Part shown: positions 2-7,114 of the stretch, piece after piece | How positions within the stretch are numbered: position 1 is the first letter of the stretch | Layout of the letters: every line of letters begins with the position of its first letter | From: a virus | Lineage: Duplodnaviria > Heunggongvirae > Uroviricota > Caudoviricetes | Strand: one strand, 5' to 3' | IMG/VR virus record: IMGVR_UViG_2698536533_000001 | Length of the DNA stretch: 7,114 bases | Notes under the pieces: model-generated | The model's input: only the letters and a program-made list of their open reading frames with translations | The model's database searches: none | Told to the model about the DNA's origin: nothing | Translations under genes and position numbers: made by a program

Positions 2-415
2 CAGCGCGACAAAAACGCAAGAGAACTGAAGCTGGCGAACGCAACCATTACTGACATGCAGCAGCGCCAGCGTGATGCTGATGCACTCGATGCTAAATAC
101 ACGAAGGAGTTAGCTGATGCGAAAGCTGAAAATGATGCTCTTCGGCGCAAGCTTGATAATGGTGGTCGGGTGCTCGTCAAAGGAAAATGCCCTGTGCCAT
201 CCTCAGCCGAAACCTCCAGCGCCTCCGGCATGGGCAATGATGCCACCGTCNNNNNNNNNNNNNNNNNNNNNNNNNNNNNNNNNNNNNNNNNNNNNNNNNN
301 NNNNNNNNNNNNNNNNNNNNNNNNNNNNNNNNNNNNNNNNNNNNNNNNNNNNNNNNNNNNNNNNNNNNNNNNNNNNNNNNNNNNNNNNNNNNAACATAAA
401 GTGCTGACCAGCTAG
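2..415 (+). CDS. Rz: Rz-like i-spanin (inner-membrane spanin subunit), 5'-partial; interrupted by the N-run, true stop probably hidden inside 251-392
   Basis: Frame 2 translation from the window edge ([48 protein letters not shown]...) closely matches my recollection of phage lambda Rz. The ORF runs off the 5' end of the window. The end at 415 is the ORF-track maximum; a lambda-length Rz would stop near 355-360, inside the N-run. Confidence 0.8.
117..300 (+). CDS. Rz1: Rz1-like o-spanin (outer-membrane lipoprotein), embedded in the +1 frame of Rz; 3' end approximate (inside N-run)
   Basis: ATG at 117 is preceded by AAGGAG (102-107, 9-nt spacer). Product [44 protein letters not shown] has a signal peptide with lipobox (VVGC) followed by a proline-rich stretch, the classic Rz1 architecture nested out of frame inside Rz. 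End is estimated from the ~60-aa lambda Rz1 length. Confidence 0.75.
251..392. other. Run of 142 N (assembly gap or masked sequence)
   Basis: Directly visible in the sequence. It hides the 3' ends of Rz, Rz1 and the convergent minus-strand gene, so ORF-track ends across it (e.g. 177 for the minus ORF) are artefacts of N being translated as X. Confidence 0.99.
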
Positions 416-866
416 CAGCTGAAATCAGACTCACTGTATACACTTTCACTGGATGAAGTTGCAACATTCCTGCCACCAAAGGAGCAATATAACGCAGCAC
501 GGCGATAAAGCGCGAAGTGAAAAGTATTGACACAGAGTTATTTTGCAACTGAAGGCGAACCCGTTCTATTGTATTGGAACGGCTTGATATTATACATGCA
601 AGTTGAGGGATATGCCCAATTATTATACCAAGATGGTAATTAACGATAGTACCGCACCATGCGCCACTCATGACCGTGATTCCAGCTTCCCATGGTGAAA
701 GAGTCGTCTTGCTGACTGTAATTACAGTGGCCATCATAATTGATGCTGGTGGCAATATCGCCGAAATGAGTAAAGTGGATTTTGTGAACGCTATTATAAA
801 AAGAAGCCCCCATAGGCGATATGGATGAAGTACAAAATAGTTCATCAAAGCATTTATCCACTCCAT
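393..866 (-). CDS. YqaA/DedA (SNARE-associated)-like small inner-membrane protein; phage moron; 3' end lies in the N-run
   Basis: Minus-strand ORF with ATG at 866-864 (TTG alternative at 869-867) preceded by AGGAAAG RBS. Product MMEWINALMNYFVLHPYRLWGLLFIIAFTKSTLLISAILPPASIMMATVITVSKTTLSPWEAGITVMSGAWCGTIVNYHLGIIIG...LRYIAPLVAGMLQLHP... is strongly hydrophobic with several predicted TM segments. Motif spacing (AFxxSTLL, S-PW, GxxxGxxxNxxLG, PLVAG) resembles my recollection of E. coli YqaA. The region is about 38-40% GC versus roughly 50-60% in the late genes. Confidence 0.5.
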
Positions 867-919
867 CAATGTCTTTCCTTCTGTGAATTTTTCTTTGCTA
901 TTTAACCGTGATACGACTT

Positions 920-949
920 AATTTAGGCTTAAACACCTTACATTTACAA
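920..949 (-). promoter_or_regulatory. Candidate sigma70-type promoter for the minus-strand membrane-protein gene
   Basis: On the minus strand: TTGTAA (plus 944-949), 18-nt spacer, TAAATT (plus 920-925), about 50 nt upstream of the start at 866. Weak match to consensus; sequence inspection only. Confidence 0.2.
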
Positions 950-1063
950 GGTACTCCTGTGGGGGGCCCTGCCACGGAGCGTCGCAGGAGTGAGTGATGA
1001 GGAAGAATTAAAGCAACCTATTGTGACAGGCAGCGATAACAGTAAATCACAGGAAGCATAATC

Positions 1064-1828
1064 ATGGCAAAACCGGACTGGGAGGCCATCGAATCGGCAT
1101 ACCGGGCCGGAGTCCTTAGCCTCCGTGATATAGGCGAGAAATACGGCGTTACAGAAGGGGCTATCAGGAAGAGGGCCAAAAAGCTTGGTTGGGCACGCAG
1201 TGGCGGTACGCAGGTTTGCAAAAATGGTACGCAAAAAAGGAAAGTGCGTACCAGCAGAAAGCCTGCCATTACTGGCCTTACACAAAAAAGTACGCAACTA
1301 AAAACAGAATCTACACCGGATACGAAACCGATACGCGGAATGCGTACCGATCCCCCGACTAACCCATTCCAACCCGGTAACCAGCAGGCATTAAAACACG
1401 GTGGTTATGCCCGTCGCCTTCTGCTCAAAGATGAGGTGATAGAGGACGCTAAAGCGTTGACGCTCGAGGACGAATTATTTCGCCTTCGTGCTAACAACCT
1501 TGTCGCTGCAGAGAATATTGGTCGGTGGTTGGTGTCGCTGGAAGATGCTAATGGGGACCAGGAAAGGAAGATGCTGATTGAAAATATCAGCGCCGCCGAG
1601 AAAGCAATGATGCGCAATACAGTTCGTATTGAGTCCATCGTTGGCACGCTTGCGACGGTAGGAAAAATATTTGCTGATACAGCCTACCGCAAGGCCGCCA
1701 CTGATAAGGTGTCTCTGGAGGCTGATCGTCTTCGCCGTGATGCAGGTATTGATGATGGCAATGGAGAGCGTGACCTCAATGACTTCTACTCTGACATCCA
1801 AACCGACGCTGAATCCGGCTTTACGTAG
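1064..1828 (+). CDS. Terminase small subunit (N-terminal HTH DNA-binding domain)
   Basis: ATG at 1064 with AGGAAG RBS (1049-1054). N-terminus AIESAYRAGVLSLRDIGEKYGVTEGAIRKRAKKLGW is HTH-like. A basic low-complexity linker and a NPFQPGNQQALKHGGYA motif are typical of phage small terminases as I recall them. It sits immediately upstream of the large terminase. Stop is TAG at 1826-1828. Confidence 0.85.
   Translation: MAKPDWEAIESAYRAGVLSLRDIGEKYGVTEGAIRKRAKKLGWARSGGTQVCKNGTQKRKVRTSRKPAITGLTQKSTQLKTESTPDTKPIRGMRTDPPTNPFQPGNQQALKHGGYARRLLLKDEVIEDAKALTLEDELFRLRANNLVAAENIGRWLVSLEDANGDQERKMLIENISAAEKAMMRNTVRIESIVGTLATVGKIFADTAYRKAATDKVSLEADRLRRDAGIDDGNGERDLNDFYSDIQTDAESGFT
1205..1348. repeat. Cluster of 5 GTACGC-core motifs (3 direct GGTACGCA-like, 2 inverted TGCGTACC) inside terS; candidate pac or TerS recognition site
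   Basis: GGTACGCA at 1205-1212 and 1226-1233; GTACGCA at 1290-1296; TGCGTACC at 1245-1252 and 1341-1348. A 6-mer in either orientation is expected about 0.07 times in 144 bp; the rest of the window carries only about 3 copies (near 2646, 3908, 5098), which is roughly background. Confidence 0.35.
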
Positions 1829-3182
1829 TTTCTGGACTATGCGGGCACGTAACAAAGTGCTTTATGGTGGTCGGTCATCGTCAAAATCATGGGATGCCGC
1901 TGGCATTGCCATATTTCTGTCGAATAAATACACCCTGCGTTTTTGTTGTGCCCGTCAGATCCAGAATAAAATCGAAGAGTCGGTGTATACCCTGCTCAAA
2001 ATTCAGATAGACAGGTTTGGTCTGCGGCACCGTTTCCGTATTCTGAACAACAAAATCATTAACCGGGTTACTGGCTCGGAATTTGTTTTTTATGGATTAT
2101 GGCGCAACATCGAAGAAATTAAGTCACTGGAGGGGATCGATGTGTTGTGGCTGGAAGAAGCCCACGCACTGACGGAATACCAGTGGAAAATTCTGGAGCC
2201 AACGATCCGTAAAGAGGGTTCGGAATGCTGGTTCATATTCAACCCCGGACTTGTTACTGATTTCGTCTGGCGCAACTTCGTTGTTGATCCGCCCGAAGGC
2301 ACTCTCATCCGCAAAATTAACTATGACGAAAATCCGTTTCTGTCTGACACCATGCTTAAGGTTATCGACGCGGCGCGACGCCGTGATCCGGATGGTTTTA
2401 AACATGTGTATGAGGGCGTTCCGGAGTCTGATGATGATGCGGCAATCATCAAACTGTCTTGGATAGAAGCCGCAGTGGATGCGCACAAAACGTTAAATTT
2501 CGAACCCAGTGGAAGAAAGCGTATTGGCTTTGACGTGGCTGACAGTGGTACAGATAAGTGCGCTAACGTTTACCGTCACGGATCCGTTGTTTTCTGGGCC
2601 GACGAATGGAAGGCCAAAGAAGATGAATTACTGAAGAGCTGCCAGCGTACTTATCAGGCGGCGCTGGAGCGTGAAGCAGATATTGTTTACGACTCTATCG
2701 GTGTTGGTGCGTCTGCCGGTGCTAAATTCTCTGAAATTAACGCTGACCGGAAGAGCGAGAACGCATACGCGCGACGTGTGAATTACCAGAGGTTTAACGC
2801 CGGTGCTGGTGTGCATGAGCCAGATGACGAGTACAACGGCATCCCCAACAAAGACTTTTTCGCAAATCTTAAGGCTCAGGCATGGTGGCTGGTGGCTGAC
2901 CGTTTCAGAAATACGTTTAACGCCATTAACAACGGAGAACAGTATCCTGTGGATGAGCTGATCAGCATAGATTCTCGTTGTCCGTTGCTTGAAAAGCTGA
3001 AACTGGAACTGACAACACCTCATCGTGATTTCGACCGTAACGGACGTGTGATGGTCGAAAGTAAAAAAGACCTCGCAAAACGCGAGATACCGTCACCAAA
3101 CGTTGCTGATGCATTCATTATGGCCTTCGCGCCAATCGATACATCGCTGGATATCTGGGAACAGCTGGGGAGACAGGCCTGA
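1779..3182 (+). CDS. Terminase large subunit (PBSX/Terminase_6-like ATPase-nuclease); start uncertain
   Basis: Walker A-like KVLYGGRSSSKSWD preceded by LNPALRSFW, typical of PBSX-family large terminases. ORF-track start 1671 overlaps terS by 158 nt; ATG 1779 (GGAGAG RBS about 10 nt upstream, 50-nt overlap) keeps the conserved LNPAL segment. ATG 1839 is also possible but would drop that motif. Stop TGA 3180-3182 overlaps the next ATG (ATGA). Confidence 0.85.
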   Translation: MTSTLTSKPTLNPALRSFWTMRARNKVLYGGRSSSKSWDAAGIAIFLSNKYTLRFCCARQIQNKIEESVYTLLKIQIDRFGLRHRFRILNNKIINRVTGSEFVFYGLWRNIEEIKSLEGIDVLWLEEAHALTEYQWKILEPTIRKEGSECWFIFNPGLVTDFVWRNFVVDPPEGTLIRKINYDENPFLSDTMLKVIDAARRRDPDGFKHVYEGVPESDDDAAIIKLSWIEAAVDAHKTLNFEPSGRKRIGFDVADSGTDKCANVYRHGSVVFWADEWKAKEDELLKSCQRTYQAALEREADIVYDSIGVGASAGAKFSEINADRKSENAYARRVNYQRFNAGAGVHEPDDEYNGIPNKDFFANLKAQAWWLVADRFRNTFNAINNGEQYPVDELISIDSRCPLLEKLKLELTTPHRDFDRNGRVMVESKKDLAKREIPSPNVADAFIMAFAPIDTSLDIWEQLGRQA

Positions 3183-3565
3183 TGGCACGAAACAAACAAG
3201 CCCTGCGGCGAACTGTGCAGGCCACAGCTGATGGTTATGAGAATTTTATTGCCCGCGTAGGGATGCAGACACCTAACCAGCACTCAGCATCCACCTACCG
3301 GGCTAATTTCACCAGTCGTAACCGCATGCTGGTGGAATGGTCCTATCGTTCATCCTAGATCATCGGCGAAGCAGTCGATGCTATCCCGGATGATATGACC
3401 CGCAAAGGCATTCGCATCACTTCGGAAATTGATGCAAAAGATCGTGGCATTCTCGAATCACAACTGGATGAGTTGCAAATCTGGGATGCGCTGAATGACG
3501 TGCTGAAATGGTCGCGCCTCTACGGCGGCGCGGTGGGTTTCATCATGATTGAGGGGTAGGCACCA
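3182..3565 (+). pseudogene. Portal N-terminal region, same frame as the downstream portal ORF, interrupted by two in-frame amber codons (TAG 3356-3358 and 3557-3559)
   Basis: ATG 3182 overlaps the terL stop (ATGA) and has a GGGGAGA RBS. Hand translation: MARNKQALRRTVQATADGYENFIARVGMQTPNQHSASTYRANFTSRNRMLVEWSYRSS*IIGEAVDAIPDDMTRKGIRITSEIDAKDRGILESQLDELQIWDALNDVLKWSRLYGGAVGFIMIEG*APMTPL..., running in frame into the ATG at 3566. There is no frameshift, only the two TAG codons. Confidence 0.6.
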
Positions 3566-4648
3566 ATGACCCCGCTGCGACCCGAAACCATCGGTAAGGG
3601 CAAGTTTAAGGGGATTCTCCCGCTCGACCGCTGGATGGTCGACCCGGCACTGACCCGCCGCATTAAAGATATGGGGCCGGACCTGGGTAAACCTGAGTTT
3701 TACGATGTGGTGACCACAGCAACGGGAATTCCTGCCTGGCGCATTCATCACAGTCGCCTGATTCGCTTTGATGGCGTCACGTTGCCATTTCAGCAGAAGA
3801 TGACCGAGAACGAATGGGGAATGTCGGTTGTAGAGCGTATCTGGGATCGTCTTACCGCGTTCGACAGCGCTACTGTCGGCGCGGCGCAGCTGGTCTACAA
3901 GGCGCATTTGCGTACCTACAGCGTGGAGAAGCTACGCGAGCTTATCGCACTTGGTGGTCCTGCGTATGAAGCGTTGCTGAAGAATATCGACCTGATTCGA
4001 CAGTTCCAGAGTAATGAAGGCATGACGCTCATGGACTCGCGGGATAAGTTTGAAACCCATCAGTACAGCTTCAGTGGTCTGGATGACATCCTTTCGCAGT
4101 TTGTAGAACAGATTAGTGGCGCTGTTGGTATCCCACTGGTGCGGTTGTTCGGACAGTCCCCGAAAGGATTTTCTACCGGTGATGCAGACCTTGCCAACTA
4201 TTACGATCGCATCAGTTCGTTGCAGGAGAGGCGTTTACGTCTTCCGGTGCGGCGGATACTGGACATCATGCATCGTTCGGAACTTGGCAAGCCGCTGCCG
4301 GACGATTTCACGTTTGAGTTTAACCCGCTCTGGCAAATGTCTGATGTCGATCGCTCAACGGTGGCGTTAAACACCACCAACGCAATCAGTACGGCGCTGG
4401 GTGATGGTCTGATGACACTGAAAGCCGCTATGACTGATTTGCGAGAAAATTCTGACGTAACCGGCATCGGGGCATCCATTACCGACGAGGACATCGAGAA
4501 TGCCGAAGATGAAGCGCCGCCCGGCATCGGCGAACCTGATGACGAACCGCAGGAGCCGTCAGGCGGAAATCCGGTATCGAACCAGCCTACGCAGGATAGC
4601 GAGGGCGGTCGGAGACATCGTAAATGGTCGCTACGATGGTTCAAATGA
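3566..4648 (+). CDS. Phage portal protein (longest uninterrupted segment; the full frame begins at 3182)
   Basis: 360-aa ORF directly after terL in the canonical portal position, with an acidic C-terminal tail (EDEAPPGIGEPDDEPQEP...). GAGGGG RBS lies 9 nt upstream of ATG 3566. Stop TGA 4646-4648. Confidence 0.8.
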   Translation: MTPLRPETIGKGKFKGILPLDRWMVDPALTRRIKDMGPDLGKPEFYDVVTTATGIPAWRIHHSRLIRFDGVTLPFQQKMTENEWGMSVVERIWDRLTAFDSATVGAAQLVYKAHLRTYSVEKLRELIALGGPAYEALLKNIDLIRQFQSNEGMTLMDSRDKFETHQYSFSGLDDILSQFVEQISGAVGIPLVRLFGQSPKGFSTGDADLANYYDRISSLQERRLRLPVRRILDIMHRSELGKPLPDDFTFEFNPLWQMSDVDRSTVALNTTNAISTALGDGLMTLKAAMTDLRENSDVTGIGASITDEDIENAEDEAPPGIGEPDDEPQEPSGGNPVSNQPTQDSEGGRRHRKWSLRWFK

Positions 4649-5282
4649 CAGTATCACGGAAATTATTGCGGCGCTGGAGCGTTACAGTGAAATCATCACC
4701 CCCTGGGCGACAAAGGTCGCGGAAAACTTTACTGCGGACCTAACCCGGCAGAACGAGAAAGTTTGGCGGCAACACAGCAAGAACATCAGTCGCGAGCTCC
4801 GCAATCTTGTGGAAAGCGCTCCTGTGGGCCAGGTGATGCAATCCATCATCGCCGAACAGGTCAAGTACATCAAATCTCTGCCTCTCGAGGCCGCAGACAG
4901 GGTGTACGACATCCAGAACAAAGCGATAGAGGCTGTTGTCACCGGTGGTCGGGCGGAGCAGTTTGCTAAAGAGATTGCATCTACCGGCGATGTTGCTAAG
5001 TCTAGGGCCGATCTGATTGCCCGAACGGAACTGGGAAGAGCAACGGGCGCGCTGGATATGGCCCGAGCGATAGCTATTGGCTCGGATGGTTATATTTGGC
5101 GTACAGCCGATGATGGCGATGTCCGAGATTCCCACGATCACATGAAAGGTAAATTCGTCCGCTGGGATTCACCTCCAACTTTGGACGGCATGACCGGCCA
5201 CGCGGGCGAGCTGCCAAACTGCCGCTGCTATAAAGAGATCGTGTTTGTTCGCGTTCCATTCGCAATGAAAAGGGCAGCATAA
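4500..5282 (+). CDS. Head morphogenesis protein, Mu F / SPP1 gp7 family
   Basis: C-terminal region IWRTADDGDVRDSHDHMKGKFVRWDSPPTLDGMTGHAGELPNCRCYKEIV carries the D-x-R-x-x-H ... NCRC signature I associate with Mu F-like domains. GAGGA RBS 8 nt upstream of ATG 4500; alternative start at ATG 4539. It overlaps the portal 3' end by 149 nt in another frame. Confidence 0.8.
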   Translation: MPKMKRRPASANLMTNRRSRQAEIRYRTSLRRIARAVGDIVNGRYDGSNDSITEIIAALERYSEIITPWATKVAENFTADLTRQNEKVWRQHSKNISRELRNLVESAPVGQVMQSIIAEQVKYIKSLPLEAADRVYDIQNKAIEAVVTGGRAEQFAKEIASTGDVAKSRADLIARTELGRATGALDMARAIAIGSDGYIWRTADDGDVRDSHDHMKGKFVRWDSPPTLDGMTGHAGELPNCRCYKEIVFVRVPFAMKRAA

Positions 5283-5285
5283 CCC

Positions 5286-6506
5286 ATGAAATACTTTTTT
5301 GAGACCAGGCTCGGGGAAACCCGATACCGCCTGGCTGACGGCTCGTTGCTGTGCAAAGACGTGCCGATAGGACGAACAGGTAAGCAGCTCTATGGTGCTG
5401 ATGACCTGCCAAAACTGAAACCCGATAAGTTCGGTGAAATAGTCGTCACGCGTTCTCCTGAGCAGGTATTCCATCCGGCCACGCTTGCCTCATTCGAAGG
5501 GATGAGCATCACGATCCTGCATCCTGAAGATGAAAACGGGAATGTGCGGCTGGTAAATCCCGAGAACTGGAAAGAGCTTGCTGTCGGGCACCTCCAGAAT
5601 GTCCGGCGCGGGACGGGTGAGCAGTCTGATTTGATGCTGGCTGACCTTATCGTCAAAGACGAAAGCGCCATTCAGCTTATCGAAGATGGCCTGCGCGAAG
5701 TGTCGTGCGGCTATGACGCGGAGTACGAGCAGACCGAGCCAGGTAAAGCCGAGCAGGTCGATATTACCGGAAACCATGTGGCTCTTGTCCCTAAAGGCAG
5801 AGCCGGAAATCGTTGTGCAATTGGAGACAGAGACACAATGGCAAATCAAAAGAAAAACTGGTGGAACCGCATGCGTGCGGCCATCAAGACAGGAGATGCC
5901 GACACCATGAACGAACTGGTGGAGTCGGCTCCCGCATCGGTTACAGGAGATGAGGGGGATTTGCCGCAGGGCGTTAATCTCAACATCAACCTGTCCCCGC
6001 AGCAACCACTACCGGACAAAGCACCAGAGATGGGCGGAGATCCAACCGGCGACAGTGATGATGACCTCAAAACATTACTGAAAGCCCTGCTGGCTAAGCT
6101 GGAAAGAAATGCCACGGGCGATAACGATAATAAGCCTGACGATAATCCGACCGGTGACGGCGAGGACGATGAAGAGGAAACCACGATTACTGGTGACTCA
6201 GCCTGGCGTGCCGAAGTTATCGTTCCGGGTATCGATCTGAGCCGTAAGATGAAACCGACCGCGTTCAAACGCGAGGTTCTGGCTTCTGCTGACAAAACGC
6301 TGGTTCGCCAGATAGTCGGTGATGCGGATATCCGCAAATTACCGAAACAATCGGTCGACATGGCGTTTAATGCCGTGTCTGAGGTTGCCAAAGGGCGAAA
6401 CACCCGCGCCACCACCGGCGATGCACAGCGCCTAAACATGGGCATGACCAGTATCGCTTCCCTGAACAAACAAAACGCTGAATTCTGGGCAAACCGTAAA
6501 GGGTAA
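5286..6506 (+). CDS. Putative scaffolding (or protease/scaffold) protein with acidic low-complexity central region
   Basis: 406-aa ORF 4 nt after the previous stop. The central region is rich in D/E with recurring TGD tripeptides (VTGDEGD, PTGDSDDD, ATGDNDN, PTGDGEDDEEE, ITGDSAW, TTGDAQ). Its position between the Mu F-like gene and downstream head genes fits a scaffold. Function is inferred from position and composition only. Confidence 0.5.
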   Translation: MKYFFETRLGETRYRLADGSLLCKDVPIGRTGKQLYGADDLPKLKPDKFGEIVVTRSPEQVFHPATLASFEGMSITILHPEDENGNVRLVNPENWKELAVGHLQNVRRGTGEQSDLMLADLIVKDESAIQLIEDGLREVSCGYDAEYEQTEPGKAEQVDITGNHVALVPKGRAGNRCAIGDRDTMANQKKNWWNRMRAAIKTGDADTMNELVESAPASVTGDEGDLPQGVNLNINLSPQQPLPDKAPEMGGDPTGDSDDDLKTLLKALLAKLERNATGDNDNKPDDNPTGDGEDDEEETTITGDSAWRAEVIVPGIDLSRKMKPTAFKREVLASADKTLVRQIVGDADIRKLPKQSVDMAFNAVSEVAKGRNTRATTGDAQRLNMGMTSIASLNKQNAEFWANRKG

Positions 6507-6509
6507 AAA

Positions 6510-7016
6510 ATGAATAATGTATTTCTGTACCGGATGCCTGTTGGCATTGCCGGGGCTGTCTCTCGCCCGCAGGACTTAACCGTCGAACCGGTGGTCCTTA
6601 AATCCGATAACGCCTTCGCTGCCTATGGCCTGGCTGGTAAATACGATGATGACGGTTTTTTCGTGCCGCTGGCAGATGGTGATACCGCAGACAAGGTGAA
6701 GGGGATCTACGTGCGCCCTTATCCGACCACGTCGCAGCCGGACATGGTTCGCCAGGTGGGAACAGGCAAGAACTTCCCGGGCGACGCCATGAAGCGTGGC
6801 TACGTGACCGTTAATCTCGGTTCTGATTTTGATGCCAGCACTATCAAAAAAGGCGATCCGGTATACGTTGTCGTCTCCACTGATGAATCCATCAAAGTGC
6901 CGCTGGGTGGATTCATGTCCACGTCAGTCAGTGGCAAAAACGTGGTGCTGACCAACGCTGAATTCACAGGTGCCGGTGATGCTGACGGCAATGCAGAAAT
7001 TTCCTGGAAGATTTAA
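6510..7016 (+). CDS. Hypothetical head-associated structural protein (168 aa)
   Basis: ATG 6510 with AAAGGG RBS (6498-6503, 6-nt spacer), tightly coupled to the upstream gene and in the head-module position. No family confidently recognised from sequence alone. Confidence 0.6.
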   Translation: MNNVFLYRMPVGIAGAVSRPQDLTVEPVVLKSDNAFAAYGLAGKYDDDGFFVPLADGDTADKVKGIYVRPYPTTSQPDMVRQVGTGKNFPGDAMKRGYVTVNLGSDFDASTIKKGDPVYVVVSTDESIKVPLGGFMSTSVSGKNVVLTNAEFTGAGDADGNAEISWKI

Positions 7017-7114
7017 GGAACAGACGAATGAGGTGATGCTGCCAACTTACTGATTTAGTGTATGATGGTGTTTTTGAGGTGCTCCAGTGGCTTCTGTTTC
7101 TATCAGCTGTCCCT

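Follow-up and report, generated by a model that had tools for sequence, protein, structure and literature searches.

How does the portal gene of a tailed phage come to carry two in-frame amber codons, and what do these codons say about the element in which they lie? The question is raised by a 7,114-nucleotide stretch of viral DNA (the whole of which is referred to here as the window), where the stops could belong to a phage that depends on a suppressor host, to a gene in which TAG is read as an amino acid, to a faulty sequence or assembly, to a gene whose loss was favored, or to a gene that is decaying. Our analysis indicates that this is very probably a portal pseudogene lying in a remnant of a prophage, riddled with IS elements, non-inducible and fixed in the Shigella sonnei clone. 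Two independent single-base G:C>A:T transitions interrupt a gene of 488 codons that is otherwise intact.

Translation of positions 3182–4648 on the plus strand gives 489 codons, including the terminal TGA at 4646–4648, with internal stops at codons 59 and 126 only; the frame from ATG 3182 to the TGA ending at 4648 thus corresponds to a 488-codon gene. This agrees with the initial annotation, in which the frame was described as broken by TAG 3356–3358 and TAG 3557–3559 alone. The gene and its parts are as follows.

3182–4648, plus strand: portal pseudogene (Phage_portal_3/DUF1073) with two ambers, collinear with intact 488-aa portals.
3182–3358, plus strand: ORF for a 58-aa N-terminal portal fragment, the sole product expected from the native start.
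3356–3358, plus strand: first amber, TGG (Trp59) to TAG by a G>A transition at 3357; TGG in every intact relative.
3395–3559, plus strand: ORF for a 54-aa internal portal fragment, covering profile positions 24–76.
3557–3559, plus strand: second amber, CAG (Gln126) to TAG by a C>T transition at 3557; CAG in every intact relative.
3566–4648, plus strand: ORF for a 360-aa C-terminal portal fragment without the first 128 residues, covering profile positions 84–355.
4104, plus strand: C>T causing Ala308Val, the third portal change that is specific to S. sonnei, found by sequence comparison with relatives.

Upstream of ATG 3182, at a distance of 9 nt, lies a Shine-Dalgarno-like GGGGAG (3167–3172), which bears out the good ribosome-binding site noted earlier. 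The junction with terL had been described as ATGA coupling; the actual sequence is TGATG, in which the terL stop (3180–3182) and the portal start (3182–3184) have one base in common. ATG 3566, which is in frame with ATG 3182 and starts the 360-aa ORF, has GAGGGG 9 nt upstream.

The identity of the gene can be established from its intact sister allele, which matches the Pfam profile PF06381 (Phage_portal_3, formerly DUF1073) with E = 3e-106 and 355 bits over residues 55–402. Because the profile covers these residues of the intact protein, both TAGs lie inside the portal domain. Against the curated cut-off of 33.8 bits for this profile, the 54-aa ORF of the window scores 40 bits and the 360-aa ORF 274.5 bits. 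Experimentally solved portal dodecamers are matched by sequence as well, namely those of Pam3 (8hds, E = 2.2e-37), E217 gp19 (8fvh, E = 1.1e-14) and a further gp19 portal (9b41, E = 9e-15); the alignment with the Pam3 portal begins at residue 15, with Trp and Gln aligned at the two TAG positions. The profile score, the homology to solved portals and the position after terL and before the MuF, scaffold and capsid genes all place the gene in PF06381, and what the window copy lacks is an uninterrupted full-length frame, which is broken by the two in-frame TAGs. The window gene is therefore a pseudogene of this family, that is, a non-functional member.

Comparison with relatives reveals what the two codons once were. 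The nearest copy, in E. coli FDAARGOS_943, is 99.8% identical, and its portal differs from that of the window at three bases only (3357, 3557 and 4104). The portals of E. coli PEC178 and of two isolated phages, Escherichia phage vB_EcoM-689R2 and Salmonella phage SEN34, share a length of 488 aa, align with the window without gaps, and have TGG and CAG at the two positions; amino acid identity to the window portal is 99.4% and 98.2% for the E. coli prophages, 98.2% for vB_EcoM-689R2 and 90.6% for SEN34. Because the intact relatives have TGG and CAG there, each TAG is a single G:C>A:T transition. The alignment that had been proposed as a check of the initial annotation hence returns Trp (TGG) at codon 59 and Gln (CAG) at codon 126, and the stops are, as was suspected, genuine amber point mutations in a gene whose native start is ATG 3182, from which point the intact homologues are collinear. 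That homologous portals might natively start at 3566, a result that would have told against this view, is contradicted by homologues that span the full 488 aa. The portal region is carried by 382 of 5,426 complete E. coli genomes, where it is annotated as a single DUF1073 protein beginning at the terL stop.

As to the consequence, translation from ATG 3182 would end after 58 residues and no functional portal would be made. The internal starts at 3395 and 3566 could yield fragments of 54 and 360 aa, both of which would be without the conserved N-terminal part.

It is necessary to consider this lesion in light of the genes that surround it, which in the window are the following.

1064–1828, plus strand: terS, 254 aa, intact, ending in TAG (ORF list and relatives' annotation).
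1779–3182, plus strand: terL, 467 aa, Terminase_3, intact in the window (Pfam and relatives).
4539–5282, plus strand: Mu F-like head morphogenesis gene, intact in the window (Pfam and relatives).
5286–6506, plus strand: gene for a DUF2213 head protein, called the scaffold gene in the initial annotation, intact (Pfam).
6510–7016, plus strand: cement/minor capsid protein gene, intact in the window (Pfam and relatives).
7028–7031, plus strand: start of the major capsid gene (DUF2184), with its ATG at 7028–7030, of which only ATGA is left before IS1 (junction comparison).
7032–7114, plus strand: left end of an IS1 that cuts the prophage short (junction comparison and S. sonnei loci).

The terL, MuF, DUF2213 and cement genes contain no internal TAG, TAA or TGA, and terS ends in TAG; the earlier statement that terL, MuF and the DUF2213 gene are free of internal TAG is in agreement with the sequence. 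At the right-hand edge the picture is a different one. Where three relatives read ATGATTACTTTTGATCAG... and on into the capsid gene, the window passes into IS1 a single base beyond the capsid ATG, and neither the remainder of that gene nor any prophage gene further downstream survives. Past this junction, the S. sonnei loci have the IS1 genes insA/InsA and insB (DDE transposase), followed by a lactonase gene (pgl), a LysR-type regulator and an aconitase-family gene. The 3′ end of the holin gene is interrupted by a 1,331-bp IS2, and more IS copies lie upstream. Several essential modules are thus lost or disrupted and the breakpoints lie against IS elements and host DNA, which is what defines a cryptic prophage, and the truncated capsid gene and split holin give substance to the earlier suggestion of a defective or cryptic prophage. 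The further claim that frameshifts and deletions are absent holds inside the portal gene and fails for the prophage as a whole, which has undergone large IS-associated losses. Likewise, the phage had been called non-viable without amber suppression, but its viability does not depend on the ambers: with the capsid gene and the structural genes beyond it removed by IS1, and the holin gene interrupted by IS2, translation of the portal is irrelevant to it. From such an element no portal ring, capsid or tail would be expected. With its capsid and tail genes lost at IS1 and its holin split by IS2, the element probably either lay beyond rescue already or had been released from selection, and the TAG mutations were probably neutral and fixed by drift.

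The lesion can be followed through public genomes. Positions 393–7114 of the window are 100% identical to several S. sonnei chromosomes, including HE616528.1, an accession used for S. sonnei in papers and belonging to strain 53G. An apparent 197 mismatches between the window and S. sonnei loci were set aside, as they come from a run of N that is shorter than the real sequence and do not represent divergence. All of the S. sonnei places read, 16 in number and spread over about a dozen different assemblies, some of them complete chromosomes, have both TAGs. These places comprise eight loci fetched through the 360-aa ORF, all with both TAGs, and eight places fetched through the 58-aa ORF, seven of which have the 360-aa ORF downstream, with a 337-aa portal fragment in the eighth, a noisier assembly; the 54-aa ORF is called in five of the latter eight. 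In an index of public assemblies, the exact 360-aa ORF occurs in 2,576 blocks and the exact 58-aa ORF in 2,737. Among the 5,426 complete E. coli genomes, the best match across both TAG sites was only 279/281. A scan of one-genome-per-species contigs for either allele of codon 59 gave just two hits, S. flexneri SFBU1023 and E. coli ECMA0423; TGG is the allele in each, and no single-TAG intermediate was found among these contigs. The two TAGs are thus real, fixed in the S. sonnei clone and, as far as the sequences surveyed extend, private to it.

The sister copies have decayed too, each in its own way. In FDAARGOS_943 the portal is kept; terL carries an IS2 and codon 209 of MuF has changed from TGG to TGA. 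S. flexneri SFBU1023 has retained both sense codons, TGG and CAG, within an open portal frame, but its terL bears an IS together with a 7-bp frameshift deletion, and a 17-bp frameshift deletion lies in its cement gene; the substitutions assigned to the S. flexneri lineage are three synonymous and three missense, with no nonsense. E. coli ECMA0423, for which the retrieved stretch runs from window position 2911 on, also keeps TGG and CAG and has the 17-bp deletion in common with SFBU1023. Different lesions in different genes in each lineage are the signature of unconstrained decay. Such decay is in keeping with Shigella, every reference genome of which has been reported to contain at least 199 pseudogenes (Hawkey et al. 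2020, PMC7373316), arising through IS insertion, nonsense mutation and indels.

Are two stops of the same type within one gene surprising under such decay? With PEC178 as outgroup, five derived substitutions in 1062–7031 are assigned to the S. sonnei lineage (at 1871, 2459, 3357, 3557 and 4104), and all are G:C>A:T transitions, the dominant class of spontaneous mutation in bacteria (Hershberg & Petrov 2010, PMC2936535). The ancestral portal offers 49 routes to a nonsense codon by such a transition, of which 28 lead to TAG, 17 to TGA and four to TAA, giving a probability of TAG of 0.57 per G:C>A:T nonsense change and of 0.33 that both are TAG. Because of the latter value, the identical stop type is uninformative, and the initial annotation's contention that the pattern fits amber mutation rather than random decay does not survive: it is what decay by G:C>A:T transitions is expected to leave (p = 0.33 for the same stop type). 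Strand-specific clustered deamination was considered and finds no support, given that the three portal changes involve both strands (one G>A and two C>T, as read on the plus strand).

With these observations in hand, the other readings can be weighed. A suppressor-dependent (sus/amber) phage, viable where an amber-suppressor tRNA reads both TAGs, would account for lesions that are both amber and for the intactness of the remaining head genes of the window, and a supE-type suppressor would be predicted to put Gln back at codon 126. However, IS1 leaves only the start of the major capsid gene, host DNA has taken the place of all structural genes downstream of it, and the holin is split by IS2. 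Moreover, far from being confined to a phage stock in a laboratory, the alleles occur in S. sonnei assemblies by the thousand, and the terminator of terS is itself TAG. We consider this reading, which the initial annotation had entertained, very unlikely; with the capsid truncated, the tail module absent and the holin split, the essential gene set is incomplete. Scans for tRNAs in the window and in seven loci of 21 kb identified no tRNA-CUA; the window has no tRNA gene at all, and the only one elsewhere is a tRNA-Met upstream of the lysis genes. Harder still to credit is programmed read-through or recoding, in which TAG would specify an amino acid in the manner of recoded phages. The two in-frame stops are indeed the same codon, but relatives that include viable phages (90–98% aa identity) use sense codons, TGG and CAG, at these sites, no suppressor tRNA was detected in the vicinity, and TAG would have to stand for two amino acids, Trp in one place and Gln in the other. 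In a TAG-recoded genome, TAG is expected across many genes, conserved in relatives, and not to serve as a terminator. Here in-frame TAG is confined to the portal among the genes of the window and terS terminates with it, so neither expectation is borne out, and genome-wide recoding, against which the initial annotation had argued, is excluded. The least credible reading of all is an artefact of sequencing or assembly. A run of 142 N in the window does betray a draft or scaffolded assembly, but the recurrence of both TAGs in every one of the 16 places read, complete chromosomes among them, and of the fragment ORFs in more than 2,500 indexed blocks disposes of the concern that the TAGs are errors.

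There remains the idea that knockout of the portal was driven by selection, the host benefiting, for example, from escape from a toxic portal expressed by the prophage or from a portal-sensing defence system, with pure drift as the alternative. An excess of nonsense changes could hint at selection for inactivation. In 2442–7031, comparison with four relatives gives three substitutions private to S. sonnei, all of them in the portal and two of them nonsense, a nominal enrichment of p about 0.01–0.03; counted otherwise, nonsense accounts for two of the five S. sonnei-lineage substitutions (nominal p = 0.02, post hoc, the window having been flagged for these stops) and for two of the three portal substitutions (nominal p = 0.011, also post hoc). 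A third nonsense change, the TGA in MuF, arose independently in FDAARGOS_943. These p-values lose force, however, since it was on account of these stops that the window was picked out, and with the two TAGs set aside there is one nonsense change among the 10 remaining lineage-assigned substitutions in three lineages. Furthermore, a second nonsense change adds no benefit after the first, loss of the portal prevents neither lysis nor killing upon induction, and the S. flexneri lineage, dead by other lesions, nonetheless has an open portal frame with no nonsense. We therefore regard selection as improbable, although less so than suppression, recoding or artefact, and favor the decay of a portal gene in a defunct prophage.

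The practical meaning of this is mainly one of annotation, beyond which the locus has little significance: 3182–3358, 3395–3559 and 3566–4648 are to be described as one portal pseudogene and not as three genes. In the young S. sonnei clone, the locus is also a clear case of prophage decay that lends itself to dating, and it illustrates that two stops that are both TAG are the default under G:C>A:T pressure on coding sequence rich in CAG and TGG, and no sign of suppression or recoding.

It is informative to place the locus among known systems. The portals of vB_EcoM-689R2 and SEN34 have the same length of 488 codons, the read-through translation of the window gene is 90–98% identical to them, and the gene order terS-terL-portal-MuF-DUF2213-cement-capsid is common to these phages and the window. 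In contrast to members of the Phage_portal_3/DUF1073 family such as SEN34 gp3 and the portals of vB_EcoM-689R2 and of the Pseudomonas phages Pam3 (8hds) and E217 (8fvh), the window copy cannot make the full protein. Transitions of TGG and CAG to TAG are the classic lesions of laboratory amber (sus) mutants of phages such as lambda, P22 or T4, which are grown in supE or supF hosts, and the window portal has the same type of lesion in an essential morphogenesis gene. Unlike those mutants, the window belongs to a remnant that occurs naturally in the chromosome of clinical S. sonnei and is devoid of capsid, tail and intact holin genes; no suppressor tRNA was detected in the window or in the 21-kb flanking loci. 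The closest likeness is to the nonsense pseudogenes of Shigella and E. coli cryptic prophages (PMC7373316), where a defective lambdoid prophage has likewise lost a structural gene to point nonsense mutation, with IS1 and IS2 insertions and an IS-associated deletion alongside, and the dead gene has become fixed in a clonal lineage restricted to its host. Compared with these, the sole and mild oddity is that two nonsense changes fall in one gene with few other substitutions; the portal lesion is an ordinary, already understood kind of pseudogene in a cryptic prophage remnant.

Two copies of this prophage have each been entered by IS2: in Shigella sonnei the element lies in a holin gene, and in the E. 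coli FDAARGOS_943 copy the same element (99.3% identical) is present but is placed in terL. These are independent insertions within the same prophage lineage. The S. sonnei element and the other inserted or accessory features discussed here are as follows, L006 being the S. sonnei locus that reaches beyond the window.

L006 4386-5716, upstream of the window: IS2, 1,331 bp, within the 3′-terminal part of the class II holin gene
Window 357-869, minus strand: gene for a DedA/VTT-domain membrane protein, ~170 aa, flanked by the lysis cassette and terS
Window 7028-7114 and L006 13463-14300: IS1, inserted one base past the major capsid gene's ATG

Point lesions and deletions are also found in the related copies. 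The MuF gene (Mu F-like head morphogenesis) of FDAARGOS_943, at L001 7440-8183 (window 4539-5282), carries its own nonsense mutation at codon 209 (TGG>TGA, site 5165), and this, too, is a G>A transition. In the S. flexneri SFBU1023 copy (L011), terL has a 7-bp deletion at window-equivalent 2883-2889, and an IS-sized insertion of ~1.3 kb lies close to window-equivalent 2442-2446. L011 and the E. coli ECMA0423 copy (L012), the latter compared from window-equivalent 2911 onwards, have both lost the same 17 bp of the cement gene (window-equivalent 6857-6873). The portal frame is open in both. Among E. coli B/BL21 genomes (hits H36-H39), only about the first half of the portal gene is present, 97–98% identical over query positions 30-835. 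The RefSeq label for this piece, “anti-CBASS protein Acb1 family protein”, seems to be a misleading family name given to a truncated portal.

At the right end of the window, pgl and a LysR regulator gene come after the IS1 element in the S. sonnei chromosomes, and there is a second IS1 copy ~3 kb beyond. This arrangement suggests that the rest of the prophage was lost through IS1-mediated deletion or rearrangement. Near the left end, window 251-392 is a run of 142 N, which corresponds to 241 real bases in S. sonnei 53G; these comprise the 3′ ends of the Rz-like lysis gene and the DedA gene together with the intergenic spacer. Given this difference in length, the run is more likely a gap whose size was estimated during scaffolding of a draft assembly than length-preserving masking. 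The DedA gene itself, kept in the FDAARGOS_943 copy and absent at that spot in the PEC178 prophage, looks like prophage cargo (a moron).

Long gene overlaps occur at two places: terS and terL share 50 nt (window 1779-1828), and portal and MuF share 110 nt (window 4539-4648) if the PGAP start of MuF is taken. That start is uncertain, since other gene callers place it at 4824 (152 aa) rather than 4539. A Pfam search with the terS protein (254 aa, window 1064-1828) gave zero matches at E ≤ 0.001; the gene nonetheless occupies the canonical position, and in Salmonella phage SEN34 the gene in the equivalent position is annotated as the small terminase subunit.
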